Part shown: positions 5,440 through 25,287 of the stretch, in pieces
Layout: every line of letters starts with the position of its first letter
Position numbering within the stretch: position 1 is the first letter of the stretch
Virus record (IMG/VR): IMGVR_UViG_2698536339_000017
Origin: a virus
Taxonomy: Duplodnaviria > Heunggongvirae > Uroviricota > Caudoviricetes
Strand: one strand, 5' to 3'
Length of the DNA stretch: 28,361 bases
Program-made: the position numbers and the translations under genes
The notes under the pieces: generated by a model
Told to the model about the DNA's origin: nothing
The model's database searches: none
What the model saw: only the letters and a program-made list of their open reading frames with translations

Positions 5440-5443
5440 AAGA

Positions 5444-7212: not shown

Positions 7213-7213
7213 T

Positions 7214-7922: not shown

Positions 7923-7925
7923 AAT

Positions 7926-8593: not shown

Positions 8594-8688
8594 GCTGCTT
8601 TCTCCTGAAATAGAGGGCGGTGGACGGGGTTTTGATGTGGCAGTGCCTTTCGCCACCCCGTGCCGCCCGTGCGCGGGGGCACGTTCTG

Positions 8689-9339
8689 TCAGCGGCTGTC
8701 ATTGCGCAGTCTGCGCTCCAGCTGCTGTTTGTCTTTTTTCACGCCACAGCGGGGATCGAGCTGCAACGCATGGTTGAGATGATTAAGGGCGGAAGCCGGA
8801 TTGCTTTCACTCAGGACAGCGCCAATCGCTTTATGCAGACGCGCCCGTGACTGGTCCGGCATATCCAGACCGTCTGTCAGCTCCAGCGTCTGCAACAACA
8901 GATCGGCATCAAAGCCGGTGGCGGCAAGCATTGCGCTCTGCGCGGCGTCTGACATTTCCTCTGCCAGCACGGTCTGCACATTGCGGTTACCCAGTGGCAT
9001 CACCCAGCCATGACGTAGGGCATGACGCCCGATCTCCAGCGCCCCGGCATAATCTCCGGCATCAATGCGCCACAGCATCACGTACATCAGCACGTCATCC
9101 TGTTGAGTGCCTCCGGCAGCCAGGACACCCTCTGCCCAGGCAGCGTATTTCGGCAGCAGCTCCACCTTGATTTCCGCTTTTTTGACCGTGGACTGAACGC
9201 CCTTGAGACGGCGGCGGTCTTCCGCCAGTTGCAGCAGCATCAGGTCATAGCCCGACGCGTGGCGAACACTGCCGCCCTCGCGGGCGGCCTGTTCAGCCTG
9301 AACGCGCAGGCGATGCTGCCGTGCGGGACTCAGGCTCAT
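8689..9339 (-). CDS. M: Terminase endonuclease (small) subunit M
   Basis: 216 aa with ...DDVLMYVMLWRIDAGDYAGALEIGRHALRHGWVMP..., similar to P2 gpM. Confidence 0.85.
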   Translation of the reverse strand: MSLSPARQHRLRVQAEQAAREGGSVRHASGYDLMLLQLAEDRRRLKGVQSTVKKAEIKVELLPKYAAWAEGVLAAGGTQQDDVLMYVMLWRIDAGDYAGALEIGRHALRHGWVMPLGNRNVQTVLAEEMSDAAQSAMLAATGFDADLLLQTLELTDGLDMPDQSRARLHKAIGAVLSESNPASALNHLNHALQLDPRCGVKKDKQQLERRLRNDSR

Positions 9340-9342
9340 GAA

Positions 9343-10401
9343 TTACGCTCCGGTTTCTGCTGCGGCGGCGCTGAAGTCGCCAATCTGGATGTTTTCCACC
9401 AGTGCGGCACAGCGGTAGTCCTCAACCACATAGGCTTCGTTAACGGATTCAAAGTTTTCAATCCGGTCACGTTTCGGGTTGTCGATAACTGAACGGCGGC
9501 GGGTGTCTTCCTGCCAGTAGATGGACAGGTTATCCAGACGGGTAATCAGCAGTGCATTCGGCGGGAAGAACGGCGCACGCACGGCCTGCAGGCCCCCCAT
9601 GCGTTTCTGGCTGATGATCATATCGGCAGCCAGTTTTTCACTGTTTTCCTGCTCTTTGTTGACCAGCGGGAAATACTTGTCAGACAGCAGTTCACGACCG
9701 CAAATCACCACCAGATCGTCATCGTCCTGGTAGACCACGTCGATAAGCTCATTGACGGCATCCATCACCACGGCGTCCAGGTTGGCATATTCGCCACCTT
9801 TCCCGACTTTCACTGCGCCCGGTGTGGTTTCACCGCCCGTGGTGGTGCTGCCCATGACGTGATCCGGTGCATCCTCACGGATTTTCTGCAGCCAGCCTTT
9901 ATTCACATCCTGCAGTAGCGGGTTTTCGCTACGGTTGGAGGTTTTCGCACGCTTCACGCCGTTAAAGCCGATCATGATGCGGTCCAGTGCCTGACGTTTC
10001 ACGATGGCGTCACGGATACGCACCTGAAAATCCTGAAACTTCGCCCACAGGTCCAGCTTCGCGTAGGTCAGCACCGTGTCAAAGTTGGTCTGCTCGCATT
10101 TATATTCCACATCGACCATCAGCGTCGGATCGACAGGTTCACGCTCTTTCGCGGTGGTATCAGTGGTTCCGGCAATGGTGCTGCCAACTCCCAACCCCAG
10201 CAGCTGACCGGACTGCTCAGTCACTGGCGTGACGTTAATCAGCGTCAGGAAAGCGGCGGACTGCTGGATCTGGTCTTCCAATGTCTGCTGCACGGACGGC
10301 TCTACGGTGAACTTGCTGGACAGTTCTTCAACTGCCACACCGTTCAGACGCGCCAGCTGCTGCAGGTAAGCGTTAAAAGCCAAGCGGGTATTCTTCTTCA
10401 T
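9343..10401 (-). CDS. N: Major capsid protein N
   Basis: 352 aa, similar to P2 gpN across its length. Confidence 0.9.
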   Translation of the reverse strand: MKKNTRLAFNAYLQQLARLNGVAVEELSSKFTVEPSVQQTLEDQIQQSAAFLTLINVTPVTEQSGQLLGLGVGSTIAGTTDTTAKEREPVDPTLMVDVEYKCEQTNFDTVLTYAKLDLWAKFQDFQVRIRDAIVKRQALDRIMIGFNGVKRAKTSNRSENPLLQDVNKGWLQKIREDAPDHVMGSTTTGGETTPGAVKVGKGGEYANLDAVVMDAVNELIDVVYQDDDDLVVICGRELLSDKYFPLVNKEQENSEKLAADMIISQKRMGGLQAVRAPFFPPNALLITRLDNLSIYWQEDTRRRSVIDNPKRDRIENFESVNEAYVVEDYRCAALVENIQIGDFSAAAAETGA

Positions 10402-10417
10402 CGGGTTTTGTGCTCCA

Positions 10418-11251
10418 TCAGCAATTGGTCAGAGTGTCAGCGGGGGCGTTACCGCCTGTTGCACGCTGGCGGTAGTCCTGGCGGCTGTCTTCATGACTCA
10501 GCTTATTCACCAGTTCGTTAAAGGCGGTCTGCTGTGCCTGCAGGGCAGTCTCCAGCTCAGACAGACGTTCTTCCTGCTCAGACAGGGATTTTTCGGTCCG
10601 TGCGCTCAGGTTCTGCTGCTCAGTGGCGACCAGCTCCACGGCCTTATGCACATCAGAGAACCGGGCATCGTCGGACTGCTCTTTTTTGGTGAACAGCGCC
10701 GTGACGCGGGCAAACAGGGACGGCTTGTCCTCCTGGATTTCTTCCAGTTCGATCACCGTTTCCTCTGCGGCGGTAAAGAGATTGGCGGGATTCTGCTTGC
10801 GGTTTGCCAGCGGGTTATGGGCTGCACTGGCGCTGAATGTCAGCATTTCAGTGCCCAGACTGGCAGGGTCATCAGTGGCAGCCAGCCCGACCAGGTAGGC
10901 TTTGCCCGTATCAGCAAACTTTGGGCTGACTTCCATAGAGGTGAATAATTTCTGGCCTTTTTTCACCAGATCCACCAGGGACTCTGTTGGCTCAACGTCG
11001 GCATACAGCGCCATCTTGCCTGCCAGCGGACCTTCCGTGATTTCTTCAGCAAACAGCGCCGTCACCTTGCCGTAGCGGTTAAAGGTGCTGTCCGGCAGAT
11101 AAGACTTGATGTGCTCAAGGTTAATCAGCGCGGTATACACCGCCGGGTTGTAGCTGGCTGCCATCTGTTCCAGCCATTCACGCTGGATTTCGCGTCCGTC
11201 GGTGGTGGCACCTTCCACCCCGATGCGAAAACGCTTTGCTTTCACTGTCAT
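10418..11251 (-). CDS. O: Capsid scaffolding protein O
   Basis: 277 aa; position and composition (acidic coiled-coil C-terminal part) match P2 gpO. Confidence 0.8.
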   Translation of the reverse strand: MTVKAKRFRIGVEGATTDGREIQREWLEQMAASYNPAVYTALINLEHIKSYLPDSTFNRYGKVTALFAEEITEGPLAGKMALYADVEPTESLVDLVKKGQKLFTSMEVSPKFADTGKAYLVGLAATDDPASLGTEMLTFSASAAHNPLANRKQNPANLFTAAEETVIELEEIQEDKPSLFARVTALFTKKEQSDDARFSDVHKAVELVATEQQNLSARTEKSLSEQEERLSELETALQAQQTAFNELVNKLSHEDSRQDYRQRATGGNAPADTLTNC

Positions 11252-11329
11252 GAGCCGTGCTCCGTTAGAAAAAACTTACTGGAGCCTTATGGTTGCGGTG
11301 ATGGGGGCAGTGAAACAATGCGCGGTATT

Positions 11330-11347
11330 TGTACCGACAACCACACA
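11330..11347. promoter_or_regulatory. TGT-N12-ACA Ogr-type late promoter box in the divergent P/O intergenic region
   Basis: TGTACCGACAACCACACA. Centre is about 87 bp from the O start codon, compatible with a -55 activator site plus about 30-nt leader for the O operon. No second clean box for P was found. Confidence 0.45.
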
Positions 11348-11393
11348 AACCGCAGGCGGGGAAAGCCTTCATTCAAGGCTGTAGGTTTGTGCC

Positions 11394-13160
11394 ATGAACA
11401 CCACACTGACACCCGCAGATCTCGATCCCCGTCGGCAGGCCATGCTGCTGTACTTTCAGGGATACCGCGTAGCCCGCATTGCTGAAATGCTGGGCGAGAA
11501 AGTTGCAACCGTTCACAGCTGGAAAAAACGCGACAAGTGGGGTGACTATGGGCCGCTGGATCAGATGCAGCTCACCACCGCCGCACGTTACTGCCAGCTC
11601 ATTATGAAGGAGCACAAAGAAGGGAAAGATTTCAAAGAAATTGATCTGCTGGCGCGCCAGTCGGAGCGCCACGCGCGGATCGGCAAGTTTAACAATGGCG
11701 GCAACGAAGCCGATTTAAACCCTAACGTCGCCAACCGCAACAAAGGCCCGCGCCGTCAGCCTGAAAAGAATGTTTTCACCGATGAACAGATTGAGAAGCT
11801 GGAAGAAATCTTCCATTCCTCCATGTTCAACTACCAGCGTCACTGGTGGGAAGCCGGAAAAACCAACCGCATCCGCAACCTGCTGAAGTCACGCCAGATC
11901 GGCGCGACCTTCTATTTTGCCCGTGAAGCCCTGATTGACGCCCTGCTAACCGGACGTAACCAGATTTTCCTTTCTGCCAGTAAGGCACAGGCGCACGTCT
12001 TTAAGCAGTACATCATCGACTTCGCCAAAGAAGTGGAAGTGGAGCTGAAAGGCGATCCGATGGTGCTTCCCAACGGGGCCACACTGTATTTCCTCGGCAC
12101 CAATGCCCGCACTGCCCAGAGTTACCACGGCAACCTGTATCTGGATGAATATTTCTGGATACCGAAATTCCAGGAGCTGCGCAAAGTGGCTTCCGGTATG
12201 GCTATTCACAAAAAATGGCGACAAACCTATTTTTCCACGCCATCCAGCCTGACCCACAGTGCTTATCCGTTCTGGTCCGGTGCGCTGTTCAACCGTGGAC
12301 GCAACAAAGCCGACAAGGTGGACATCGACCTGTCCCACAGCAATCTGGCCCCCGGCCTGCTGTGCGCAGACGGGCAATACCGCCAGATAGTCACCGTAGA
12401 AGATGCGGTGCGCGGCGGCTGTAACCTGTTCGACCTTGACCAGTTGCGCATGGAATACAGCCCGGACGAATACCAGAACCTGCTGATGTGTGAGTTCGTG
12501 GACGATCTCGCGTCCGTGTTCCCGCTCAGCGAGCTGCAGGCGTGCATGGTGGACAGTTGGGAAGTCTGGACCGACTTTCATGCACTGGCCCTGCGCCCGT
12601 TTGGCTGGCGCGAAGTGTGGATCGGTTATGACCCGGCAAAAGGTACGCAGAACGGCGACAGCGCCGGATGCGTGGTGGTGGCACCGCCAGCCGTGCCGGG
12701 CGGTAAGTTCCGCATTCTTGAGCGTCACCAGTGGCGCGGGATGGACTTCCGCGCCCAGGCTGATGCAATCAAAAAACTGACCGAGCAGTACAACGTGACC
12801 TACATCGGCATCGACTCGACAGGTGTCGGCCACGGGGTTTACGAGAACGTGAAAGCGTTTTTTCCAGCCGTCCGGGAGTTTGTCTACAACCCCAACGTTA
12901 AAAACGCCCTGGTACTCAAGGCCTACGACATTATCAGTCACCGTCGTCTGGAGTTTGACGCCGGACACACCGACATAGCGCAGTCATTTATGGCAATCCG
13001 TCGCGCCACCACCGCCAGCGGCAACCGCCCAACCTATGAAGCCAGCCGCAGCGAAGAAGCCAGCCATGCCGATCTGGCCTGGGCAACAATGCACGCACTG
13101 TTTAACGAACCGCTGCAGGGCGAGTCCGCCAATACCAGCAATATTGTGGAGATTTTTTGA
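11394..13160 (+). CDS. P: Terminase ATPase (large) subunit P
   Basis: 588 aa, similar to P2 gpP. Divergent from O as in P2. Confidence 0.9.
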   Translation: MNTTLTPADLDPRRQAMLLYFQGYRVARIAEMLGEKVATVHSWKKRDKWGDYGPLDQMQLTTAARYCQLIMKEHKEGKDFKEIDLLARQSERHARIGKFNNGGNEADLNPNVANRNKGPRRQPEKNVFTDEQIEKLEEIFHSSMFNYQRHWWEAGKTNRIRNLLKSRQIGATFYFAREALIDALLTGRNQIFLSASKAQAHVFKQYIIDFAKEVEVELKGDPMVLPNGATLYFLGTNARTAQSYHGNLYLDEYFWIPKFQELRKVASGMAIHKKWRQTYFSTPSSLTHSAYPFWSGALFNRGRNKADKVDIDLSHSNLAPGLLCADGQYRQIVTVEDAVRGGCNLFDLDQLRMEYSPDEYQNLLMCEFVDDLASVFPLSELQACMVDSWEVWTDFHALALRPFGWREVWIGYDPAKGTQNGDSAGCVVVAPPAVPGGKFRILERHQWRGMDFRAQADAIKKLTEQYNVTYIGIDSTGVGHGVYENVKAFFPAVREFVYNPNVKNALVLKAYDIISHRRLEFDAGHTDIAQSFMAIRRATTASGNRPTYEASRSEEASHADLAWATMHALFNEPLQGESANTSNIVEIF

Positions 13161-14185
13161 TGGGAAAGAGTAAAAAAAACCGCGTAGCGGCGATGAATCA
13201 GATCCAGCATAAAAGCCAGACTTCAGCCGAAGCATTCAGCTTCGGCGATCCCGTTCCTGTTCTGGACCGCCGTGAACTGCTGGACTATGTGGAATGCGTA
13301 CAGACAGATCGATGGTATGAGCCGCCAGTGAGTTTTGACGGGCTGGCGCGCACCTTTCGCGCCGCCGTGCATCACAGCTCACCGATTGCGGTGAAATGCA
13401 ATATTCTGACCAGTACCTACATCCCTCACCCGCTGCTCAGCCAGCAGGCTTTTTCACGTTTTGTGCAGGACTATCTGGTATTTGGTAACGCCTACCTGGA
13501 GAAACGCACGAACCGCTTCGGTGAAGTTATCGCCCTTGAGCCTGCTCTGGCAAAATACACCCGACGCGGGTTAGACCTGGATACCTACTGGTTTGTGCAA
13601 TACGGTATGACAACCCAGCCGTATCAGTTCACGAAAGGCAGCATTTTTCATCTGATGGAACCGGACATCAACCAGGAGATCTACGGCCTGCCAGGTTATC
13701 TTTCTGCCATTCCGTCAGCCCTGCTCAACGAGTCCGCCACGCTGTTCCGCCGGAAGTATTACATTAACGGCAGTCATGCAGGCTTCATCATGTACATGAC
13801 CGATGCCGCGCAGAACCAGGAGGATGTGAACAACCTCCGCAATGCGATGAAAAGCGCCAAAGGCCCTGGCAACTTCCGCAACCTGTTTATGTACTCGCCT
13901 AACGGCAAAAAGGACGGGCTTCAGATCATCCCGTTGTCAGAAGTCGCGGCGAAGGATGAATTTCTTAACATCAAGAACGTGAGTCGGGATGACATGATGG
14001 CAGCGCATCGTGTGCCGCCACAAATGATGGGGATAATGCCTAATAATGTTGGGGGATTTGGGGATGTAGAAAAAGCTAGTAAGGTATTTGTGAAAAATGA
14101 ATTATTACCATTACAAAAAAGAATGAAAGAATTTAATCATTGGAGCGGTGAAGAAATTATAAAATTCGAGAGATATCAAATTTAG
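13157..14185 (+). CDS. Q: Portal protein Q; last about 50 codons have AT-rich codon usage (recombinant 3' end)
   Basis: 342 aa, similar to P2 gpQ including the C-terminus. Codon composition switches abruptly to AT-rich near 14030. Confidence 0.9.
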   Translation: MMGKSKKNRVAAMNQIQHKSQTSAEAFSFGDPVPVLDRRELLDYVECVQTDRWYEPPVSFDGLARTFRAAVHHSSPIAVKCNILTSTYIPHPLLSQQAFSRFVQDYLVFGNAYLEKRTNRFGEVIALEPALAKYTRRGLDLDTYWFVQYGMTTQPYQFTKGSIFHLMEPDINQEIYGLPGYLSAIPSALLNESATLFRRKYYINGSHAGFIMYMTDAAQNQEDVNNLRNAMKSAKGPGNFRNLFMYSPNGKKDGLQIIPLSEVAAKDEFLNIKNVSRDDMMAAHRVPPQMMGIMPNNVGGFGDVEKASKVFVKNELLPLQKRMKEFNHWSGEEIIKFERYQI

Positions 14186-14191
14186 CAAAGT

Positions 14192-14206
14192 GCCTCTAAA
14201 AGAGGC
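14192..14206. terminator. Short hairpin between convergent Q and DprA-like gene stops (possible bidirectional terminator)
   Basis: GCCTCT-aaa-AGAGGC inverted repeat in the 24-bp gap. Stem is short, so termination efficiency is uncertain. Confidence 0.3.
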
Positions 14207-14209
14207 GCT

Positions 14210-15184
14210 TTAAATCAAGTCTAATGTACTCTGTTTCCCTGGCCATTTTAGCTCTAACAAATACTCCCGGGACTCATTTATGATCATAATCACATCATCA
14301 TAATCCCGTTTTGTTTTTAGCGCTCTAGCCATGTTGCTCTTAACTAAATCAACTGTTCCCTCACAATTAAGATTAAGCGGATTATTAGGTAGGTGAGGTA
14401 CAACCGCAAACACTGGTCTTTTCGCCTTATTTGCAAACTCAGCTTGAGTTATCGTTCCGCTATTTAACGCAGCCTCGATTAAAATTGAACCTGCAGATAA
14501 TCCAACTTGTATCCGATTTCTTTGTACAAATGATTGTTTCTGGGCCGGCCGACCCATAGGATACTCAGAAATCCATGCACCACCTTTATCCAGAATCTCT
14601 TGAGCAAGTCGACTGTTTTGCTTCGGCTTAGCCTCCTCAAGACCATGCGCCAAGACAGCAATGGTTTTTCCTTTTGCCTGTAACGTTGCCTTGTGGGCAT
14701 TCGCATCAGTGCCTATTGCTAACCCACTTACAACAATATACCCAGCAGACACTATCTGATTAGTGATCCGCCTCGTTATTTCTTCCCCTGCAGGGGAGGT
14801 ATCACGGGATCCTACAATTGCGACACCCGGCAATTCTTTGAGTATACTTTTATCCCCTTTTATGTAGAGAATTGATGGTGGATTAGGAGTAAAAGCTAAA
14901 CTAAGAGGATAGAATTCAGACCCATATGGTATTAGCTCCACACCATTAACATGGTGGTTCTCCAATTCAGCGTTCGCTATTAGAAAATCAGTCTCAGATA
15001 TTTTATCTTTTAGAAACCCGTGGCTATTAACCATCTCAGTTAAGTCGCGTATATCACGAATAACATCAAAATCGATAAGCTCAAAGAATTTTAATACACT
15101 TTGATCAGATGCTAGCTTCCCGATTTGAATAGCTAATCCAAGTGTATTTTTTAATTCTTCTGAGTGCACTTTGCTACTCCTCAT
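14210..15184 (-). CDS. DprA/Smf-like Rossmann-fold protein (DNA_processg_A / SLOG-type domain) with about 110-aa N-terminal extension
   Basis: 324 aa with motifs GVAIVGSRDTSPAGEE...GYIVVSGLAIGTDANAHKATLQAKGKTIAVLAHGLE...GGAWISEYPMG...QRNRIQVGLSAGSILIEAALNSGT, matching the conserved DprA core. AT-rich codon usage. Overlaps the upstream gene by 11 bp. Confidence 0.8.
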   Translation of the reverse strand: MRSSKVHSEELKNTLGLAIQIGKLASDQSVLKFFELIDFDVIRDIRDLTEMVNSHGFLKDKISETDFLIANAELENHHVNGVELIPYGSEFYPLSLAFTPNPPSILYIKGDKSILKELPGVAIVGSRDTSPAGEEITRRITNQIVSAGYIVVSGLAIGTDANAHKATLQAKGKTIAVLAHGLEEAKPKQNSRLAQEILDKGGAWISEYPMGRPAQKQSFVQRNRIQVGLSAGSILIEAALNSGTITQAEFANKAKRPVFAVVPHLPNNPLNLNCEGTVDLVKSNMARALKTKRDYDDVIMIINESREYLLELKWPGKQSTLDLI

Positions 15185-15749
15185 AGTTTGCAGTTTCTAG
15201 CAGAGCTAATGGCATTATAACTCCAGCTCCTGCAGACTCCAGTAAATAAAAACACGCAGACAAACTACCGCCTGTTGTTTTAACATCATCTAGTAGTAAC
15301 ACATTTCGCCCCATGAGGTTACCACCCCTAACTCTGATACTAGACATGTGACCAGTAATTGAGCGATCTCCTCCTTCACGATGTGCGCTAGGAACAGTGC
15401 GTGTTCTTTCCAAACAGCAATCAACAATGCCCCGACGGTGAACATTTACGATTCGCTCGGCGACCTCAATCAAAGCCGGTGAAATTCTGCCTTCAGTGTG
15501 AGACGGGACAACTGCTATCGAAAAAGGAGACTCAACAAAACGCCCACCGCCACCTCTGATTACTAACCGCCCAACCTTATCTATAGCTAATCGAGAAAAA
15601 CGGTTAATGGCCCTTTGATGATTACGATTATTTTCATCCTTAAAATCCATCATCTGCCTTGATAGTTCATCGCTATGAGGGTTGCGCTCTCCCAAATGCC
15701 AGTAGGGGTGATACAAGCCACACGATGTAATACTTACGGGTAAAAGCAT
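15174..15749 (-). CDS. ComF-like phosphoribosyltransferase-domain protein
   Basis: 191 aa with a PRPP-binding-type motif NVLLLDDVKTTGGSL near the C-terminus. No obvious N-terminal four-Cys zinc finger. Weak RBS, so the exact start is uncertain. First gene of a two-gene operon with the DprA-like gene. Confidence 0.7.
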   Translation of the reverse strand: MLLPVSITSCGLYHPYWHLGERNPHSDELSRQMMDFKDENNRNHQRAINRFSRLAIDKVGRLVIRGGGGRFVESPFSIAVVPSHTEGRISPALIEVAERIVNVHRRGIVDCCLERTRTVPSAHREGGDRSITGHMSSIRVRGGNLMGRNVLLLDDVKTTGGSLSACFYLLESAGAGVIMPLALLETANYEE

Positions 15750-15879
15750 TCTTTATTCTCATGTAGTCCTAACTCAAACAATGTTAAGCGAAATGATATT
15801 TCATAGACAAACACAAATTTAAGAATAATCTCAATGATCACATTTTTGATTATGAAACAAAGCCAAGAGTTAGCGCGCG

Positions 15880-15898
15880 CTCGTATCCCCGCCACGCC
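15880..15898 (-). other. Candidate cos (cohesive end) core inside a GC-rich island
   Basis: Minus strand reads GGCGTGGCGGGGATACGAG followed by CGCGCGCTAAC. The first 13 nt match the P2/186-family cohesive-end sequence GGCG(A/T)GGCGGGGA as I recall it, and the following GCGCGCT(A/G)AC resembles the sequence next to P2 cos. The island is GC-rich within AT-rich surroundings. Memory-based, not aligned. Confidence 0.35.
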
Positions 15899-16277
15899 TG
15901 CCCGCTTTATGCAGTGGTTTTCATGCACATGCATGACATGAGCAAAAGCCCGCCAGTTCTGGCGGATCTGAGCAAAGACGATCCTCAATCGATCATGCGA
16001 TTTCATGCAGCATAGTCATGCACTGTCAAGGAAGTGAAAATCCGTATCTGAATGGCCACTTGAAAAACGGATCATACGGGTTTACAAAGATGAATGTTCG
16101 CTGTGAACGGGAAGCGGAAGTTAACTTTCAGATAACATAATCCATATGCACGAGAACCTCTAAAATAGAATGGGACACCTAAGCGGGGTACTTACAACGA
16201 TTCTTTCCATATTCACAGTTAACACTCTGTTTGGCGTATTTTTATTCAAATAGCAAACACCAATAAAAGGAGTTTCC

Positions 16278-16559
16278 ATGAACAATATTCCCCCTATACC
16301 ACAGTTAGGAATTTATGTCTCAAAAATCGATCCCACCCTACGTATCACTGTAACCGATGTTGATATTGTTGATGGTGAGGATGATTCTCCTGATGATGAA
16401 TTGTTTTATTTAGTCCACTGGATCGAGGGGGAAGATGAAAGTGATATGACAGCAATGGGATTTGAGCTAGACCCAGTAGAGTGGCAGGCTTTCGTTGAAT
16501 CTGAGCAATTAGTGTTTGAGCGTGATGATCCTACCCACGTAATATGGACACAGGCCTAA
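16278..16559 (+). CDS. Small, very acidic protein of unknown function; native 3' end replaced by IS3 terminal sequence
   Basis: Good RBS (AAAAGGAG) 6 bp upstream of ATG. About 82 native codons with roughly 29 percent Asp/Glu. The last 11 codons (PTHVIWTQA and stop) are encoded by the IS3 terminal inverted repeat starting at 16526. Confidence 0.5.
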
Positions 16560-17422
16560 GCGAGGTTCTTGTTTTCAAATTGTTCCGGACTGAGGCCGCC
16601 ACACCAACTGTGCCGCCGCCACCGATTGTAATCACATTCGATATAATTAAACACCGTTGCCCGCATTATTTCCCGGCTGATAAAGTGTTCTCCATGGATA
16701 CATTCCACTTTCAGCGAATGAAAGAAGCTTTCCACGCAGGCATTATCGTAGCAGCAACCTTTTGCGCTCATACTTCCACGCAGATTATGCCGCTTCAGTT
16801 GCGCCTGATAATCTGCTGAACAGTACTGGCCTCCACGGTCCGTGTGAACGATAACGTTCCGGGGCCTCTTACGCCGCCACAGCGCCATCTGCAGGGCATC
16901 GCAGGCCAGTTGCGCCGTCATGCGTGGCGACATTGACCAGCCAATAACGGCACGTGACCACAGGTCAATGACCACTGCCAGATACAGCCAGCCTTCATCT
17001 GTACGTAAGTACGTGATGTCTCCTGCCCACTTCTGGTTCGGGCCACTGGCGTAAAAATCCTGCTCCAACAGATTTTCTGACACAGGCAGGCCGTGTGCGC
17101 GGTAGCTGACCGGGCTGAACTTCCGGGAGGCCTTTGCCCTCAGTCCCTGACGGCGCAGGCTTGCCGCCACGGTTTTTACGTTAAAGGGGTAACCCTGAGC
17201 ACGCAGTTCATCCGTCAGGCGTGGGGCACCGTAACGCTGTTTTGACCGGGTAAAAGCCGCGAGGACAACGCTGTCGCAGTGTTGGCGGAACTGCTGACGC
17301 GTGCTTATCCTTGTCCGCCGCTGACACCACGTATACCAGCCGCTGCGGGCCACCCGGAGCACGCGGCACATTGCTTTGATGCTGAACTCAGCCTGATGTT
17401 TTTCAATAAAGACATACTTCAT
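16556..17422 (-). CDS. insF: IS3 transposase orfB (InsF-type, DDE integrase domain)
   Basis: 288 aa; sequence recognised as IS3 orfB. Normally expressed as an OrfAB frameshift fusion, which the truncated orfA here cannot provide. Confidence 0.85.
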
Positions 17423-17567
17423 TTCAGGCGCTTCGCGAAGTATGTCGCGGCCTTTTGGAGGATAGCCAGCTCTTCATCCCGTTCTGCCAGCTGGCGTTTG
17501 AGACGTGCAATCTCGGTAGACATCTCCAGTTCACGTTCAGAAGACGTCTGCTGATTTTGCTGTTTAC
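17419..17567 (-). pseudogene. insE: IS3 orfA (InsE-type) remnant, N-terminally truncated
   Basis: Encodes only the C-terminal part ...[48 protein letters not shown]; HTH-containing N-terminus and promoter absent. Confidence 0.75.
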
Positions 17568-17569
17568 AC

Positions 17570-17595
17570 TTCTCCCAAACCAACGTTTATGAAAA
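17570..17595 (+). other. Gin/Hin-type crossover site adjacent to the invertase gene (site C)
   Basis: TTCTCCCAAACC-AA-CGTTTATGAAAA; about 20 of 26 positions match hixL (TTCTTGAAAACCAAGGTTTTTGATAA) as I recall it. Left half identical to the tail-fibre half-sites. Lies 55 bp upstream of the invertase start. Confidence 0.65.
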
Positions 17596-17650
17596 TGCAG
17601 AGATAACGGCTAACTGGCATCATCTCCGGTTTTTATTCAGGAGGATGATC

Positions 17651-18217
17651 ATGCTTATTGGCTATGTACGCGTGTCAACAAATGACCAGAACACCGATTT
17701 GCAACGCAATGCACTGAACTGTGCGGGATGTGAGCGGATTTTTGAGGATAAAATCAGTGGCACCAAGTCCGACAGACCGGGGCTGAAAAAGCTGCTCAGG
17801 ACACTATCGGCAGGAGACACGCTGGTTGTCTGGAAGCTGGACAGACTGGGGCGCAGTATGCGGCATCTTGTTACGCTGATAGAAGAGCTGCGCCAGCGTG
17901 GCGTGAATTTCCGAAGCCTGACTGACAGTATTGATACCAGCACCCCAATGGGCCGTTTCTTTTTTCATGTCATGGGTGCCCTGGCTGAAATGGAACGCGA
18001 ACTGATAGTTGAACGTACCAGGGCGGGGCTGGCTGCAGCTCGTGCTAAAGGCAGAGTAGGTGGACGCCGTCCTAAGTTGACCAGCGAACAGTGGGCACAG
18101 ATTGGGCGTTTACTCGAGGCCGGAGAATCAAGACAGCGTATTGCACTGATTTTTGATGTAGGCGTTTCTACCATTTATCGAAAATTTCCGGCAAATAAGA
18201 ACAATAAATCTCCCTGA
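17651..18217 (+). CDS. Serine recombinase DNA invertase, Gin/Pin/Cin/Hin family
   Basis: MLIGYVRVSTNDQNTDLQRNAL... with catalytic Ser in VRVST and a C-terminal HTH (GVSTIYRKF). Near-identical in motif content to Mu Gin as I recall it. RBS AGGAGG upstream; an in-frame ATG at 17645 is an alternative start. Confidence 0.9.
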   Translation: MLIGYVRVSTNDQNTDLQRNALNCAGCERIFEDKISGTKSDRPGLKKLLRTLSAGDTLVVWKLDRLGRSMRHLVTLIEELRQRGVNFRSLTDSIDTSTPMGRFFFHVMGALAEMERELIVERTRAGLAAARAKGRVGGRRPKLTSEQWAQIGRLLEAGESRQRIALIFDVGVSTIYRKFPANKNNKSP

Positions 18218-18265
18218 ATCAGCTTTATTTTGATTATCCCTGAAAGCAGACAAATACCGTCATTT

Positions 18266-18283
18266 TGTGTGAATAACGGTACA
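18266..18283 (+). promoter_or_regulatory. TGT-N12-ACA Ogr-type late promoter box for the FI operon
   Basis: TGTGTGAATAACGGTACA centred about 85 bp upstream of the FI start codon, the expected -55 position with about 30-nt leader. Confidence 0.5.
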
Positions 18284-18359
18284 ACTGCGCTTAGCTGTTT
18301 GTCAGGCACAATCACTTCAACATAGGGCGAAGCCTAATCCAATCAGGAGGTTCGCCACT

Positions 18360-19532
18360 ATGGCTCAGGATTACCACCACGGGGTGCGCGTTGTTGAAGT
18401 CAACGAAGGCACCCGATCCATTACCACGGTGAGCACCGCCATCGTGGGTATGGTCTGCACGGGCGATGATGCCGATGCAAAAATGTTTCCTCTTAATAAA
18501 CCCGTGCTGATCACTGATGTGCTGACTGCCAGCGGTAAAGCGGGTGAGTCAGGCACGCTGGCTCGTTCGCTGGATGCCATCGCTGACCAGGCAAAACCCG
18601 TGACCGTTGTTGTGCGTGTGCCGCAGGGTGAAACGGAAGAAGAAACCACGACCAATATCATCGGAGCAGTGACCGCTGAAGGTAAAAAAACAGGCATGAA
18701 AGCCCTGTTATCTGCCCAGTCACAGCTCGGCGTTAAACCGCGCATTCTCGGCGTGCCAGGTCACGACACGAAGGCGGTAGCTACTGAGTTGCTGAGCGTG
18801 GCGCAAAGCCTGCGTGGATTTGCTTACCTGTCAGCGTATGGTTGCAAGACAGTGCAGGAAGCAATCACTTACCGTGAAAACTTCAGTCAGCGTGAAGGAA
18901 TGCTGATCTGGCCCGACTTTACTGGCTGGGACACGGTGCTGAATGCCGAAGCAACGGCTTATGCCACCGCCCGTGCGCTTGGTCTGCGCGCCAAAATTGA
19001 CGAGCAGACCGGATGGCACAAAAGCCTGTCCAACGTGGGCGTTAACGGTGTCACCGGAATTTCTGCTGATGTGTTCTGGGATCTGCAGGACCCGGCAACC
19101 GATGCGGGACTGCTGAACCAGAACGACGTCACCACCCTTATCCGCAAAGACGGTTTTCGCTTCTGGGGTTCCCGCTGCCTGAGTGATGACCCGCTCTTTG
19201 CCTTCGAAAACTACACCCGCACGGCGCAGGTGCTGACGGACACGATGGCAGAAGCGCACATGTGGGCGGTGGATAAACCGCTGAATCCGTCGCTGGCCCG
19301 CGACATTATCGAGGGTATCCGCGCCAAAATGCGCAGCCTGGTCAGTCAGGGCTATCTCATTGGTGGTGATTGCTGGCTGGATGAGTCGGTGAACGACAAA
19401 GACACGCTGAAAGCCGGAAAACTCACCATCGACTACGACTACACGCCAGTGCCGCCACTTGAAAACCTGATGCTGCGTCAGCGCATCACCGATCAGTACC
19501 TGGTGAATTTCTCCAGCCAGGTCAGCGCGTAA
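18360..19532 (+). CDS. FI: Tail sheath protein FI
   Basis: 390 aa, similar to P2 gpFI. Confidence 0.9.
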
Positions 19533-19541
19533 GGGGACAAC

Positions 19542-20057
19542 ATGGCTTTACCACGCAAATTAAAACACCTGAACCTGTTTAATGACGGGAACAACTGGCA
19601 GGGGATCGTTGAGTCGCTGACGCTGCCGAAATTTACCCGCAAATATGAGAAGTATCGCGGTGGCGGAATGCCGGGTGCAGTGGATGTGGATCTGGGGCTG
19701 GATGACGGCGCACTGGATACGGAATTTTCCATTGGTGGTACTGAACTGCTGCTGTTTAAGCAGATGGGCAAAGCCACGGTGGATGGTATCCAGTTGCGCT
19801 TTACCGGCTCTATCCAGCGTGACGATACCGGGGAAGTGCAGGCCGTGGAGCTTGTGGTGCGTGGACGTCACAAAGAAGTGGATTCCGGCGAGTGGAAGAC
19901 GGGCGAAAGCAACACCACCAAAGTGACCAGTACCAACAGCTACGCGAAGCTGACTATAAATGGTGAGGTGCTCTATGAAGTGGACCTTATCAACATGGTG
20001 GAAATTGTGGACGGTGTGGACCTGATGGAAGCGCACCGCAACGCCCTCGGCCTCTGA
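19542..20057 (+). CDS. FII: Tail tube protein FII
   Basis: 171 aa, similar to P2 gpFII. Confidence 0.9.
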   Translation: MALPRKLKHLNLFNDGNNWQGIVESLTLPKFTRKYEKYRGGGMPGAVDVDLGLDDGALDTEFSIGGTELLLFKQMGKATVDGIQLRFTGSIQRDDTGEVQAVELVVRGRHKEVDSGEWKTGESNTTKVTSTNSYAKLTINGEVLYEVDLINMVEIVDGVDLMEAHRNALGL

Positions 20058-20111
20058 TGTATCTGAACGGCGCGGGATACCGCGCCAGAACCCAATTTAC
20101 AGGACAGCAAA

Positions 20112-20414
20112 ATGAGCGATAAGCAGACTGAAAAGACCATTCAACTGGATACCCCCATCAAGCGCGGTAAAACAGAAATCACCGAAATTGTGCTGCGTAA
20201 ACCGCAGTCCGGTGCGCTGCGCGGTACACGCCTGCAGGCCATTATGGATATGGATGTAAACGCGATGATGACCGTGATCCCCCGCATCTCCAGTCCGGCA
20301 CTGACTGCACAGGAAATTGCAGAGATGGACCCGGCAGATCTCACTGCCATGTCGGTTGAGGTTGTCACTTTTTTGTTGAAGAAGTCGGTGCTTGCCGGTT
20401 TACCGACAGCCTGA
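20112..20414 (+). CDS. E: Tail assembly chaperone E
   Basis: 100 aa; position between FII and T. Contains the slippery heptamer near its 3' end. Confidence 0.8.
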   Translation: MSDKQTEKTIQLDTPIKRGKTEITEIVLRKPQSGALRGTRLQAIMDMDVNAMMTVIPRISSPALTAQEIAEMDPADLTAMSVEVVTFLLKKSVLAGLPTA

Positions 20415-20548
20415 CGGTTGACGATCTGGTGGCAGATATCGCCACCATTTTTCACTGGCCGCCATCCGTTACTGACGTTATGCCGCTGACCGAAGTGCTG
20501 GAATGGCGGTATAAAGCGATTCAGAGAAGCGGGGCCAACGATGAGTGA
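20112..20548 (+). CDS. E+E': E+E' fusion product made by programmed -1 ribosomal frameshift at T-TTT-TTG (20369-20375)
   Basis: Slippery sequence TTTTTTG sits in the zero frame as acT TTT TTG. The -1 frame stays open from 20375 to a stop at 20546-20548, overlapping the T start, giving about 145 aa as in P2 E+E'. Confidence 0.7.
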
Positions 20549-23500
20549 TAACAACCTGCGTCTGCAGGTCATTCTTAATGCGGTTGACAAGCTCACCCGC
20601 CCATTTCGATCTGCGCAGGCCAGTTCAAGAGAACTGGCTGCTGCTGTCAAAAAATCCCGCGATGCAATAAAGCAGCTTGATCAGGCCGGGAGCAGTCTGG
20701 ACAGCTTCCGAAAGCTGCAGGCAGAAAATCAGAAATTAGGCGACAGGCTGAACTATGCCCGCCAGCGTGCAAATTTGCTCAGTCAGGAACTGGGAGCGAT
20801 GGGGCCGCCTTCGCAACGTCAGGTTGTTGCTCTGGGCCGTCAACGGCTGGCTGTTCAGCGCCTGGAAGAACGCCAGAAAAAGCTGCAGCAGCAGACGGCG
20901 CTTGTGCGTGCTGAACTGTACCGGGCGGGAATTTCTGCGAAAGACGATGCGGGAGCAACTGCCCGTTTAGCCCGTGAAACATCACGTTATAACCAGGAAC
21001 TTTCGAAACAGGAGGCGCGGCTGAAGCGACTGGGGGAAGCTCAGCGCAGGATGAATGCAGCGCGTGCCAGTTATGCCCGTTCGCTGGAGGTGCGTGATCG
21101 TATTGCAGGTGCCGGAGCCACCACCACGGCTGCAGGGCTGGCAATGGGTGCGCCAGTGATGGCGGCAGTAAAAAGCTATACCAGCATGGAAGATGCCATG
21201 AAAGGTGTGGCAAAGCAGGTCAATGGTCTGCGTGACGATAATGGCAACCGCACTGCACGTTTTTATGAAATGCAGGATGCCATCAAGGCTGCCAGCGAAC
21301 AGTTGCCGATGGAAAACGGTGCGGTGGACTTCGCTGCACTGGTTGAAGGTGGTGCGCGCATGAACGTCGCAAACCCTCACGACAGCTGGGAAGATCAGAA
21401 ACGTGACCTGCTGGCCTTCGCCAGTACGGCAGCAAAGGCGGCAACAGCCTTTGAGCTGCCAGCGGATGAACTGTCAGAAAGTCTGGGGAAAATCGCCCAG
21501 CTCTACAAAATCCCCACCCGCAATATTGAACAGCTCGGTGATGCGCTGAACTATCTGGATGATAACGCCATGTCGAAAGGGGCAGACATCATTGATGTGA
21601 TGCAACGTCTGGGCGGTGTGGCTGACCGTCTGGATTATCGTAAAGCGGCGGCGCTGGGTTCCACCTTCCTGACACTGGGCGCTGCGCCAGAGGTTGCAGC
21701 CAGTGCAGCAAACGCGATGGTGCGTGAATTGTCCATTGCCACCATGCAAAGCAAGAGTTTCTTTGAAGGGATGGATCTGCTGAAACTCAATCCTGAAGTG
21801 ATTGAAAAGCAGATGACGAAGGATGCGATGGGAACCATCCAGCGCGTGCTGGAGAAGGTAAACGCGCTGCCGCAGGACAAGCGCCTGTCTGCCATGACTA
21901 TGTTGTTTGGTAAAGAGTTTGGCGATGACGCGGCGAAACTGGCAAACAACCTGCCGGAACTGCAGCGTCAGTTAAAACTGACAGCGGGCAATGATGCGCT
22001 CGGCTCCATGCAGAAAGAATCCGACATTAACAAGGATTCACTTTCTGCGCAGTGGTTGCTGGTCAAAACCGGAGCGCAGAACACCTTCAGCAGCCTGGGC
22101 GAAACGCTGCGCCAGCCGCTGATGGATATTCTGTACACGGTGAAAAGCGTCACGGGGGCGTTGCGTCGCTGGGTGGAAGCTAACCCGGAACTGACAGGCA
22201 CACTGATGAAAGCATCGGCTGTTGTGGCTGCGGTTACCGTCGGCCTCGGCACCTTAGCGGTGGCGCTGGCTGCAGTGCTGGGGCCGCTGGCAGTGATCCG
22301 TCTGGGATTCTCTGTGTTGGGTATCAAAACGTTATCTTCCGTTACGGCAGCAGTAACTCGAACCAGCAGCGCGTTGTCCTGGCTGGCTGGCGCGCCACTG
22401 GCACTGCTGCGACGCGGGCTTGCTTCATCGGGCAACGCCGCAGGTTTACTTACTGCGCTGTTGTCGTCTTTGCGCCGCACGGCATCACTGACGGGAAATG
22501 TCCTGAAAACTGTAGCAGGTGCGCCGGTTGCACTTTTGCGGTCTGGATTATCCGGTTTACGTGCTGTTGCTGTGATGTTTATGAATCCTCTGGCGGTACT
22601 GCGCGGTGGACTGGCCGCCGCAGGCACGGTGCTGCGAGTACTGGCATCTGGTCCACTGGCGATGCTGCGCGTTGCCCTGTATGCCATATCTGGTCTGTTA
22701 GGTGCTCTGCTCAGTCCGATAGGTCTTGTGGTTACTGCACTGGCGGGCGTGGCGCTGGTTGTCTGGAAATACTGGCAACCCATCACCGCATTTCTCGGTG
22801 GCGTGGTGGAAGGATTCAAAGCGGCGGCAGGTCCCATCAGTGCAGCGTTCGAACCGCTTAAGCCCGTGTTCCAGTGGATTGGCGACAAAGTGCAGGCGCT
22901 GTGGGGCTGGTTTACTGATCTGCTGACGCCCGTTAAGTCGACCTCTGCCGAACTGCAGAGCGCAGCGGCCATGGGGCGACGATTCGGGGAGGCACTGGCA
23001 GAAGGGCTGAATATGGTCATGCATCCGCTGGACTCCCTGAAATCCGGCGTTTCCTGGTTGCTGGAGAAACTCGGCATTGTCAGTAAAGAGGCTGCAAAGG
23101 CGAAACTGCCGGAAAGCGTGACGCGTCAGCAACCTGCGACGGTGAAGGCAGACGGTAAAGTGATGATGCCATCGGGTGATTTTCCGTCATGGGGATATGG
23201 CTTTGCGGGGATGTATGACAGCGGCGGCTATATCCCGCGCGGGCAGTTTGGCATCGTCGGTGAAAACGGGCCGGAAATTGTTAACGGCCCGGCAAACGTG
23301 ACCAGCCGGAGAAATACAGCTGCACTGGCTGCCGTTGTCGCCGGAATGATGGGTGTTGCTGCCGCGCCAGCAGAGCTTCCACCGTTGCATCCTTTGGCGC
23401 TTCCCGCAAAAGGCGGTGAAGCGATGGTGAGTCGTGCAGCTAGTGTGCCGCCCATTTACCGGATTGAAGCACCGACGCAGATCATCATCCAGACACAGCC

Positions 23501-23618
23501 AGGACAAAGTGCGCAGGATATTGCGCGGGAGGTGGCCCGCCAGCTTGATGAACGTGAACGCAGGCTGAAGGCAAAAGCCAGGAGTAACTACAGCGATCAG
23601 GGGGGATACGACGCATGA
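20541..23618 (+). CDS. T: Tail tape measure protein T
   Basis: 1025 aa with N-terminal coiled-coil region, a central hydrophobic Gly/Ala/Leu-rich repeat region and C-terminal domain; position between E and U. Confidence 0.9.
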   Translation: MSDNNLRLQVILNAVDKLTRPFRSAQASSRELAAAVKKSRDAIKQLDQAGSSLDSFRKLQAENQKLGDRLNYARQRANLLSQELGAMGPPSQRQVVALGRQRLAVQRLEERQKKLQQQTALVRAELYRAGISAKDDAGATARLARETSRYNQELSKQEARLKRLGEAQRRMNAARASYARSLEVRDRIAGAGATTTAAGLAMGAPVMAAVKSYTSMEDAMKGVAKQVNGLRDDNGNRTARFYEMQDAIKAASEQLPMENGAVDFAALVEGGARMNVANPHDSWEDQKRDLLAFASTAAKAATAFELPADELSESLGKIAQLYKIPTRNIEQLGDALNYLDDNAMSKGADIIDVMQRLGGVADRLDYRKAAALGSTFLTLGAAPEVAASAANAMVRELSIATMQSKSFFEGMDLLKLNPEVIEKQMTKDAMGTIQRVLEKVNALPQDKRLSAMTMLFGKEFGDDAAKLANNLPELQRQLKLTAGNDALGSMQKESDINKDSLSAQWLLVKTGAQNTFSSLGETLRQPLMDILYTVKSVTGALRRWVEANPELTGTLMKASAVVAAVTVGLGTLAVALAAVLGPLAVIRLGFSVLGIKTLSSVTAAVTRTSSALSWLAGAPLALLRRGLASSGNAAGLLTALLSSLRRTASLTGNVLKTVAGAPVALLRSGLSGLRAVAVMFMNPLAVLRGGLAAAGTVLRVLASGPLAMLRVALYAISGLLGALLSPIGLVVTALAGVALVVWKYWQPITAFLGGVVEGFKAAAGPISAAFEPLKPVFQWIGDKVQALWGWFTDLLTPVKSTSAELQSAAAMGRRFGEALAEGLNMVMHPLDSLKSGVSWLLEKLGIVSKEAAKAKLPESVTRQQPATVKADGKVMMPSGDFPSWGYGFAGMYDSGGYIPRGQFGIVGENGPEIVNGPANVTSRRNTAALAAVVAGMMGVAAAPAELPPLHPLALPAKGGEAMVSRAASVPPIYRIEAPTQIIIQTQPGQSAQDIAREVARQLDERERRLKAKARSNYSDQGGYDA

Positions 23619-24100
23619 TGATGGTGCTGGGATTGTACGTGTTTATGCTGCGCACCGTGCCATATCAGGAGCTGCAGTATCAACGCAGCTGGCGACATGC
23701 GGCAAACAGCCGGGTAAACCGACGTCCGTCCACGCAGTTTCTGGGACCGGACAACGACATGCTGACGCTTTCCGGTGTTCTTATGCCGGAGATAACAGGT
23801 GGCAGGCTGTCGTTGCTGGCACTGGAGCAGATGGCAGAACAGGGGAAAGCATGGCCCCTGATTGAAGGCAGTGGCACGATTTATGGCATGTATGTGATTG
23901 AGGGACTGAATCAGACTAAAACGGAGTTTTTCCGCGACGGTATGCCGCGCCGGATTGAGTTCACCCTGTCGCTCAAACGGGTGGATGAATCCCTGTCCGA
24001 TATATTCGGTGATCTCAGTGCGCAACTGAATAATCTGCAGGACACAGCAACGTCTGCCTTAAGCGATATCAGTAAAGCGGTGGGAGGGCTGCTGTCATGA
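23615..24100 (+). CDS. U: Tail protein U
   Basis: 161 aa; position and similarity to P2 gpU. Confidence 0.85.
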   Translation: MMMVLGLYVFMLRTVPYQELQYQRSWRHAANSRVNRRPSTQFLGPDNDMLTLSGVLMPEITGGRLSLLALEQMAEQGKAWPLIEGSGTIYGMYVIEGLNQTKTEFFRDGMPRRIEFTLSLKRVDESLSDIFGDLSAQLNNLQDTATSALSDISKAVGGLLS

Positions 24101-25197
24101 ATTTCAGCTCTGAACTGCTTAACAAAGGCAACAAAACTCCCGCATTCAGCATCAGTATTGAGGGCAGGGATATCACCACTGTGCTGGATAACCGCCTGAT
24201 GAGTTTGACGCTGACGGACAATCGGGGCTTTGAAGCGGACCAGCTTGATCTGGAGCTGGACGACGCCGACGGAAAAATCGTGCTGCCGCGCCGTGGTGCG
24301 GTTATTACGCTGGCGCTGGGCTGGAAGGGGCAGCCGCTTTTCCCGAAAGGGGCATTCACGGTGGACGAGATTGAACACACTGGCGCACCGGACCGCCTGA
24401 CTATCCGGGCGCGAAGTGCTGATTTTCGTGAAACGCTGAATACCCGCCGTGAAAAGTCGTGGCACAAGACCACCGTCGGGGAAGTGGTGAAGGAAATAGC
24501 TGTGCGGCACAAACTGAAGATGGCATTGGGTAAAGACCTGTCAGATAAACCCGTGGAACATATAGACCAGACCAATGAGAGTGACGGCAGTTTTCTGATG
24601 CGGCTGGCGCGCCAGTACGGTGCTATTGCGTCGGTGAAAAATGGCAATCTGTTATTCATCCGGCAGGGACAGGGTAAAAGCGCCAGCGGTAAACCACTAC
24701 CGGTTATCACTATCACACGTAAGGACGGCGACAGTCACCGCTTTACCCTGGCAGATCGCGGAGCCTACACGGGCGTAATTGCCAGCTGGTTGCATACCCG
24801 CGAACCCGCGAAGAATGAAAGCACCACGGTGAAGCGTAAGCGCAGGACTAAGAAGCAGAAGAAAGAGCCGGAAGCGAAGCAGGGCGATTACCTGGTGGGT
24901 ACAGATGAAAACGTGCTGGTACTTAATCGCACCTATGCCAACCGGAGCAACGCCGAACGGGCGGCGAAAATGCAGTGGGAACGCCTGCAACGCGGCGTTG
25001 CGTCATTCTCGCTACAACTGGCAGAAGGTCGGGCAGATCTCTACACGGAAATGCCAGTGAAAGTCAGTGGCTTTAAACAGCCGATAGATGATGCGGAATG
25101 GACCATTACAACTCTGACGCATACCGTCGGCCCCGATAACGGTTTTACAACCAGTCTGGAGCTTGAAGTGAGGATTGATGATTTCGAAATGGAATGA
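24097..25197 (+). CDS. D: Tail protein D (late gene D)
   Basis: 366 aa, similar to P2 gpD. Confidence 0.85.
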   Translation: MNFSSELLNKGNKTPAFSISIEGRDITTVLDNRLMSLTLTDNRGFEADQLDLELDDADGKIVLPRRGAVITLALGWKGQPLFPKGAFTVDEIEHTGAPDRLTIRARSADFRETLNTRREKSWHKTTVGEVVKEIAVRHKLKMALGKDLSDKPVEHIDQTNESDGSFLMRLARQYGAIASVKNGNLLFIRQGQGKSASGKPLPVITITRKDGDSHRFTLADRGAYTGVIASWLHTREPAKNESTTVKRKRRTKKQKKEPEAKQGDYLVGTDENVLVLNRTYANRSNAERAAKMQWERLQRGVASFSLQLAEGRADLYTEMPVKVSGFKQPIDDAEWTITTLTHTVGPDNGFTTSLELEVRIDDFEME

Positions 25198-25287
25198 TTC
25201 TTCGCAATGGAGAACTTTTAAGTTTGCAAAATGGAATAATGCGGTATCATTATTGTGAATTTAGCAAAAATGGGGAGAACTCGAAAA

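Follow-up and report, generated by a model that had tools for sequence, protein, structure and literature searches.

In a 28,361-nt stretch of P2-like prophage DNA (IMG/VR record IMGVR_UViG_2698536339_000017), herein called the window, a short open reading frame at 16278..16559 on the plus strand encodes a very acidic protein between the cos site and an IS3 element. The original prediction took this protein for a candidate DNA mimic with an anti-restriction or anti-defence role, and its C-terminus was thought to be lost to IS3. The locus raises two questions. The first is which gene this reading frame belongs to and how it was interrupted. The second is what such an acidic protein would do beside cos in a P2-like prophage.

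Gene identity and disruption by IS3

The reading frame of 93 aa was confirmed in the window sequence, and the strong ribosome-binding site predicted for it was verified (Table 1). The AAAGG of this site is kept in six of the seven aligned genera, and Morganella has AAGGA. When complete E. coli genomes were aligned to the window by megablast, the uninterrupted copies all ceased to align at 16526, where the IS3 terminal repeat starts (TGATCCTACCC...). The intact allele of strain E2348/69 (L001:6529-6864) translates to 111 aa and is the same protein as WP_001059831.

Comparison with the uninterrupted copies gives 83 native codons, where about 82 had been estimated. The IS3 origin of the ending was also verified, and its length was corrected from 11 codons to 10 codons plus the TAA stop. 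The native 28 C-terminal residues (PYMDSIPENSNLAKIRDFLMKTKQNDHS) are swapped for this IS3-derived ending. The native C-terminus is lost as predicted, but the loss is confined to a subfamily-specific tail of 28 aa, and the conserved core of residues 1-82 is intact. No difference from the intact allele was seen in the core or the upstream region, and one mismatch in 16.5 kb was found against the prophage of E. coli AMSHJX01. The reading frame very probably represents a conserved accessory ('moron') gene of P2-like prophages that encodes a DUF8087 protein, in a copy truncated by IS3.

Table 1 Coordinates of the features around the acidic gene within the window.
Feature	Position	Strand	Remarks
ShosTA defence cargo	14210..15749	-	Between portal gene Q and cos
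ShosA (DprA-like)	14210-15184	-	PADLOC E=2.8e-70; Pfam DNA_processg_A
ShosT (PRTase)	15174-15749	-	PADLOC E=3.7e-14
Conserved cos region	15868..16024		~90% in P2-like phages of Escherichia, Klebsiella, Yersinia and Salmonella
cos cohesive end, 19 nt, GGCGTGGCGGGGATACGAG	15880..15898	-	Plus-strand reading CTCGTATCCCCGCCACGCC
Upstream part of the cassette	16099..16277	+	~180 bp; ~85% nucleotide identity across genera; sharp left boundary
Hydrophobic 27-codon mini-ORF, MGHLSGVLTTILSIFTVNTLFGVFLFK	16170-16253	+	Kept in most genera; ATG lost in Morganella
Shine-Dalgarno AAGGAG	16267..16272	+	5 nt before the ATG; visible in the sequence itself
Native codons 1-83 (M1-D83) of the DUF8087 gene	16278..16526	+	Identical to WP_001059831 residues 1-83; 100% to E. 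coli AMSHJX01
IS3, 1042 bp	16526..17567	-	Terminal repeat abuts the acidic gene; cut internally at 17567
IS3-derived ending, 10 codons and TAA stop	16527..16559	+	Read from the IS3 terminal inverted repeat
Complete Pin/Gin-type crossover site, 26-bp, CTTCTCCCAAACCAACGTTTATGAAAA	17569-17595	+	1 nt beyond the IS3 end
Serine invertase gene	17645-18217	+	With the crossover site, right junction of the apparent 16.5-kb inversion

IS3 and the rearranged prophage

The IS3 orfB is intact (16556-17422, minus strand), orfA is truncated, and the element is 99.4-99.6% identical to IS3 copies. A full IS3 measures about 1258 bp; the element in the window ends at 17567 and is not full length, with its other junction outside the window. 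The missing 3' end of the acidic gene was not found on the other side of IS3, where the invertase crossover site adjoins.

The arrangement was clarified by comparison with the AMSHJX01 prophage (L021, NZ_CP030939.1 1906000-1945000). Window 1-16526 is, in the inverted direction, the part of the AMSHJX01 prophage that extends back from the tail-fibre invertible segment as far as DUF8087 codon 83. This 16.5-kb block runs from the tail-fibre genes through O, P, Q, ShosTA and cos to DUF8087 codons 1-83. Window 17569-28361 is colinear with AMSHJX01 and contains the crossover site, the invertase gene, FI...D and ogr, up to ybjL. The two prophages are otherwise 99.99-100% identical. The 13-bp half-site CTTCTCCCAAACC occurs twice, at window 1-13 (inverted) and at 17569-17581. 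The window contains neither the 3' end of the acidic gene nor the DinI-like gene, gene A, the repressor or the integrase.

The rearrangement may be a real inversion or an assembly chimera. Two routes to the junction were rejected. Pin crossover at the site centre does not agree with the complete 26-bp site retained beside the truncated IS3, nor with a native IS3 that has no half-site. Recombination between two IS3 copies does not agree with the internal truncation of IS3.

In E. coli NH-21 (L028, NZ_CP148034.1 3433306-3442739), an independent full-length IS3 was found in another P2-like prophage. It separates the tail-fibre genes from the tail sheath gene FI and has the orientation of the window IS3. 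This independent insertion indicates that IS3 repeatedly targets the tail accessory locus.

Family, distribution and selection

The family has already been catalogued. PHROG 17127 (function unknown) matches the intact homologue over residues 1-111 (E=2e-70), all 61 homologue clusters from a search of 5.8 billion proteins have a precomputed hit to PF26332 (DUF8087), and RefSeq annotates WP_001059831 as DUF8087. The window reading frame belongs to the same family, with 83 identical residues that span the family core. No Pfam family was matched by the intact protein at E<=0.01 in a Pfam copy that predates PF26332, and neither NCBIfam nor PADLOC-DB 2.0 gave a match. A PDB profile search with DUF8087 returned nothing. 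A literature search found no paper on DUF8087, PF26332, PHROG 17127 or WP_001059831, and no functional study of the family. The sole trace is WP_001059831 listed as 'hypothetical' in the available part of Table S5A of Rousset et al. (PMC9122126). The family is thus present in Pfam as a DUF, in PHROG and in RefSeq, and unnamed in the published hotspot table; the window instance is an IS-truncated member.

Homologues were found in more than 12 enterobacterial genera, including Escherichia, Klebsiella, Raoultella, Citrobacter, Enterobacter, Serratia, Providencia, Morganella, Edwardsiella, Pectobacterium, Xenorhabdus and others. The gene is present in 214 of 5426 complete E. coli genomes (~4%), and all 214 copies are full length. 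The carriers include BL21(DE3), E. coli B, E. coli W and the EPEC strain E2348/69. The original prediction would have failed if uninterrupted homologues were not conserved as a reading frame. They are conserved, mostly at 108-111 aa, and pairwise dN/dS between copies from six genera is 0.07-0.23, which indicates purifying selection. A decaying pseudogene family was rejected by the same dN/dS values and the full-length copies in E. coli.

By tblastn, no match was found in 50,697 phage-isolate records and one in 72,556 plasmids, and that one is probably a prophage-like replicon. A scan of genome contigs gave five loci only.

Composition, core and predicted structure

The native 83 codons contain 26.5% Asp/Glu with a net charge of -19. 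The extreme acidity claimed from the sequence is therefore verified, with values slightly different from the claimed 29% and about -20. The intact 111-aa protein has 23% Asp/Glu, a net charge of -19 and a pI of 4.05. The acidic gene ranks highest among 30 window genes in Asp/Glu content (next 15.5%, median 11.5%). Its 22 Asp/Glu residues were reached by none of 20000 nucleotide shuffles, with a shuffle mean of 5.7. The acidity of this DUF8087 reading frame is far beyond chance. The GC content of the gene is 41%, compared with 53% for the window.

An exhaustive HMM search of 1.84 billion representatives gave 34 proteins. The 28 distant representatives that were retrieved have 68-127 aa, most of them fewer than 107, and match profile positions 1-82 only. 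Residues P8, G11 and W69 are invariant across the family, and Y13, S15, D56 and E63 are nearly so. The C-terminal residues P84, Y85, I98, R99, D100, L102 and K106 are conserved in the enterobacterial subfamily only. Many distant relatives end naturally near residue 82, the point where IS3 cuts the window gene. This indicates that the cut removes only the subfamily-specific C-terminal helix. With this conserved helix gone, the activity of the window copy may be reduced or lost.

AlphaFold2 was used to predict the structure. Strands were modelled at residues 11-15, 22-31, 43-50, 61-64 and 78-82, with a helix at 66-76 before the last strand. A further helix, at 94-108, is present in the full-length model, which has a mean pLDDT of 74. 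The truncated window protein, modelled with a deeper alignment, has a mean pLDDT of 78, with 43 core residues above 90. Most positions from 11 to 81 score above 90, and pLDDT falls below 50 in the IS-derived tail, which is predicted to be disordered. Two acidic runs, at residues 31-41 and 50-57, were modelled as loops, one of which reads EGEDESD. The family core is predicted to be a module of about 80 residues with the order beta1-beta2-acidic loop-beta3-acidic loop-beta4-helix-beta5. The closest resemblance of this small predicted barrel is a weak one to SH3-like or Tudor-like barrels, such as DUF1653 (3be3), FeoA (6e55) and the N-terminal RNAP-interacting domain of CarD/CdnL. The barrel has no clear resemblance to a known DNA mimic.

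These results bear on the DNA-mimic proposal, in which a counter-defence (e.g. anti-restriction) protein would shield the P2-like phage or prophage by blocking the site where a host or rival nuclease binds DNA. In favour of the proposal, the protein is small and its acidity extreme, and its gene is a mobile-element gene conserved under selection in accessory hotspots beside defence genes. Small size, very low pI and mobile-element location are shared with T7 Ocr and ArdA. However, DUF8087 has neither an HMM match nor a clear structural match to these proteins. Ocr is all-helical, and the prediction for DUF8087 is a barrel of five strands plus one helix. In contrast to Ocr and ArdA, DUF8087 is not encoded in a leading region with early expression, and it is essentially missing from plasmids. 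Membership of the Ocr, ArdA or ArdB/KlcA families was not detected in Pfam (E<=0.01), NCBIfam and PDB profile searches, and the Pfam scan matched no known anti-defence family. The virtual absence from plasmids and phage isolates also counts against a mimic. The acidic composition that had suggested a DNA mimic was confirmed, while the searches of Pfam, NCBIfam and PDB profiles gave no match and the comparison with known mimic structures gave no clear one; the idea is unproven and somewhat weakened. Structure prediction had been named as a check on the idea, and by that check as well it loses ground. Since DNA mimics share no common fold, the missing fold match still leaves room for such a reading. 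Overall, the DNA-mimic explanation appears rather unlikely, and an anti-restriction role is possible but unsupported.

Acidic nuclease inhibitors, namely barstar, colicin immunity proteins, CdiI and VapX-type antitoxins, were also compared, and they have no sequence homology with DUF8087. A toxin-antitoxin or immunity pair was not found in E. coli P2-like contexts, where the neighbours are cos and the convergent DinI-like gene, with no adjacent cognate toxin.

Position beside cos in P2-like prophages

The first 12 nt of the window cos (Table 1) match the PSP3 cos (ggcgtggcggggaaagcat), and the SEN4/SEN5 cohesive end finishes with the same 5 nt (ACGAG) as the window cos (PMC5261728). The window cos is a close variant of the published P2-family cos ends (PMC5261728). 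It separates the acidic gene from ShosTA, in agreement with the predicted location on the far side of cos from the cargo operon. A DprA-plus-PRTase system protects against T7 and lambda (Rousset et al. 2022, PMC9122126). The window ShosTA has the same composition as that validated system, and the same proteins are found in E2348/69.

Transcription of the acidic gene leads away from cos towards the convergent DinI-like gene, beyond which lie a 62-aa reading frame and the replication gene A. The order Q-cargo-cos-DUF8087-DinI-hyp-gpA was found in 27 of 36 IMG/VR loci, with DUF8087 at least 95% identical among them and a Q-to-cos spacing of about 0.2 to 2.5 kb. The cargos opposite the same DUF8087 gene are ShosTA, retron Ec67, retron Eco1, AAA_15/21 genes, or cargo of no recognised kind. 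Similarly, the available part of Table S5A (PMC9122126) mentions WP_001059831 at least 50 times, beside RVT_1 and AAA_15/21 cargos; it occurs in only a subset of the loci there, and many other P2 loci are listed without it.

The gene had been assigned to a variable region. Its presence does vary across P2-like prophages; however, where present, it is a constant flank of at least 95% identity to changing cargos. The gene belongs to the P2 cos-proximal hotspot, lying between gene A and portal gene Q, beside cos and variably present. Since the same gene flanks many cargos, it is an optional accessory gene, independent of any particular neighbouring defence system. A joint function of the gene with its cargo was rejected for the same reason.

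The gene lies about 380 bp from the cos-defined genome end. If that end enters first, the gene would be among the first genes to enter, as might be expected of a DNA mimic. The gpA side of cos, where DUF8087 sits, is the slot of old and tin in P2. Old is a large ATPase/Toprim nuclease and Tin has about 250 aa, and both genes, which serve exclusion by lysogenic conversion, lie at the right end of P2 between gene A and cos. DUF8087 has no sequence or fold relationship to either of them; it is an acidic protein of 111 aa with no enzymatic domain or demonstrated exclusion phenotype. What is common to them is the accessory, lineage-variable character and the slot on the gpA side of cos, contained in the gpA-gpQ hotspot defined by Rousset et al. 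(PMC9122126). For P2-like prophages, AntiDefenseFinder finds very few anti-defence genes (PMC13586616), which further argues against the DNA mimic.

Relatives in the repressor-integrase operon

In Klebsiella, Buttiauxella and other P2-like prophages, an operon was found in the order repressor, Flk_N-like protein, DUF8087 and integrase. The Flk_N-like protein has about 210 aa with a transmembrane segment as C-terminal membrane anchor, and no toxin domain was recognised in it. The DUF8087 stop overlaps the integrase start by 4 nt in this lineage. In another lineage, the integrase is followed by DUF8087 with an 8-nt overlap at the prophage end. In a third (L019), the integrase C-terminus, a 15-nt gap, DUF8087 and an AlpA-like gene follow each other. 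The P2 repressor-integrase operon is the operon transcribed in lysogens. The presence of relatives in this operon, and not in an early lytic operon, is a further point against the DNA mimic.

The operon suggests another explanation, a Tin-like exclusion factor. Lysogenic cells would produce such a factor, and it would bind and poison a basic protein with DNA- or ssDNA-binding activity from a superinfecting phage; in its ancestral form, it would have acted jointly with the Flk_N-like membrane protein. The occupation of the old/tin slot, with transcription from the cos side inward towards the DinI-like gene, is consistent with this, as is the operon of Klebsiella and Buttiauxella. In AMSHJX01, an AAA ATPase and DUF4276 pair, which is putatively defence-like, lies between the repressor and the integrase (L021:2019-3766, outside the window). 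The pair occupies the slot held by the Flk_N-like and DUF8087 genes in Klebsiella, which fits a cargo-hotspot role of the slot. Rousset et al. also list the gene among the hotspot contents in the available part of their table (PMC9122126). Against a Tin-like factor, no PADLOC match was obtained, no phenotype has been reported, and the product is a single cytosolic acidic protein of 111 aa with no effector domain. The orphan E. coli copies, which have no Flk_N-like partner, also stay under selection. A Tin-like function is judged unlikely, slightly more so than the DNA mimic.

A portable cassette in prophages and islands

Copies of the 111-aa subfamily travel as a cassette of about 550 bp, made up of a conserved upstream stretch of about 180 bp, the gene and a 5' integrase remnant. 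P2-like prophages and unrelated genomic islands share the cassette at about 85-90% nucleotide identity, and it usually lies beside defence genes. Its upstream part presumably carries the gene's own expression signals. A promoter scan found no consensus sigma-70 promoter upstream of the gene, and inspection by eye found no LexA box there. The hydrophobic mini-ORF within this part may be what remains of an ancestral Flk_N-like protein's C-terminal membrane anchor, rather than a gene of its own. A detectable Flk_N-like gene upstream of the E. coli copy was rejected by a negative tblastn search, and the speculative 27-codon hydrophobic relic is all that was seen.

In most of the orphan copies examined, a 5' remnant of a P2-type integrase gene of 12-62 codons directly follows the stop. 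The remnant has 12 codons in the cos-adjacent E. coli copies and up to 62 codons in islands and some P2-like loci (remnant loci: L001:6865-6900, L015:7323-7463 and L052:6323-6920). The P2-like loci with a long remnant also carry a 127-aa transmembrane reading frame (PHROG 26730). The remnants show that the cassette escaped from the repressor-Flk_N-DUF8087-integrase operon.

The repeated linkage also suggests an accessory role in integration or lysogeny, in which the protein would bind, for example, the basic arm-binding N-terminal domain of the P2-type integrase or the repressor, with the orphan copies as relics. In several lineages, the gene directly adjoins a tyrosine integrase gene, either before or after it, with the 4-nt and 8-nt overlaps and the L019 arrangement described above, and the remnants follow most orphan copies. 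However, orphans beside a destroyed integrase still have dN/dS of 0.07-0.23 and are intact in 214 of 214 E. coli genomes, and this continued selection disfavours an integrase modulator. The regions next to integrases are moreover generic cargo hotspots, so that position rather than function may account for the linkage; two such intervals, integrase-att and integrase-gpA, are minor P2 defence hotspots (PMC13586616). A role in integration or lysogeny is therefore considered very improbable.

The genomic islands carry the cassette next to various genes. In a Morganella island, it lies directly downstream of a Mokosh type II gene (MkoC, E=0; L015:3242-6751), and an Antirestrict gene of the ArdB/KlcA type is located about 4 kb from DUF8087, a neighbour that would suit a DNA mimic. 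In Proteus, the cassette is about 0.9 kb upstream of PD-T7-1 (E=1e-168; L009:8265-9626). It lies beside a DUF4365-TPR gene both in Lonsdalea and in a Salmonella-looking locus with SPI-1 genes nearby. In 80 E. coli genomes (e.g. ECONIH1, L027), a copy of about 90% identity is found beside a 1589-aa DEAD-box helicase. Taken together, the relatives occupy three P2 accessory hotspots, namely the repressor-integrase operon, integrase-att and gpA-cos, as well as defence-rich islands.

A distant member (P0067, 97 aa, L023:5001-5294) stands alone next to pgsA-uvrC, outside any prophage, and appears to be what is left of an integrase-DUF8087-att arrangement.

Function of the DUF8087 protein

The explanation we prefer, tentatively and with slightly less than even confidence, is an acidic decoy acting in conflicts between phages or between phage and host. 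The DUF8087 protein would be a stoichiometric decoy, in which the two conserved acidic loops on the small barrel would occupy a basic, probably nucleic-acid-binding, surface of a partner. It would be made from the prophage and used against other phages, mobile elements or host nucleases. Several features suggest this mechanism: the acidity lies in conserved loops on a tiny barrel, no catalytic motif is present, the gene is encoded by integrated elements in conflict hotspots, and it is under purifying selection. The family has no homology to any characterised protein, and the proposed mechanism draws on composition and context.

The island copies beside Mokosh II and PD-T7-1 and the relatives in P2 defence hotspots count for a role in conflict. 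The absence from phage isolates and near-absence from plasmids count against a decoy, because typical anti-restriction genes are broadly spread. A further point against it is that the promoter scan recognised no sigma-70 promoter upstream of the gene. The tight and repeated integrase linkage, with stop/start overlaps in both gene orders, also counts against it and could mean a role in lysogeny or integration.

A bolder version of the decoy explanation is doubtful, about as unlikely as the Tin-like factor. DUF8087 would be a new family of acidic decoy inhibitors, with a counter-defence or anti-phage function and a fold unrelated to known DNA mimics, and the cassette of about 550 bp could also serve as a portable homology patch for swapping defence cargos. 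The mechanism of cargo exchange was left open in PMC13586616. Movement of defence cargos between P2-like phages and genomic islands might be explained in part by the portable cassette.

Though uncharacterised, the family is common, and it is found beside the well-studied defence systems retron Eco1, retron Ec67 and ShosTA in BL21(DE3), E. coli B and E2348/69. If the protein modulates defence or counter-defence, it could be an unnoticed variable in experiments with the carrier strains and would represent a new inhibitor fold. The window copy, truncated and located in a rearranged prophage, is a poor starting point, and the intact alleles of BL21(DE3) and E2348/69 make the family easily testable. 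In BL21(DE3) (L026, NC_012892.2 870075-884410) and E. coli B, the intact gene (B21_RS04420) lies in a defective P2-like prophage, across cos from retron Eco1 (Ec86).
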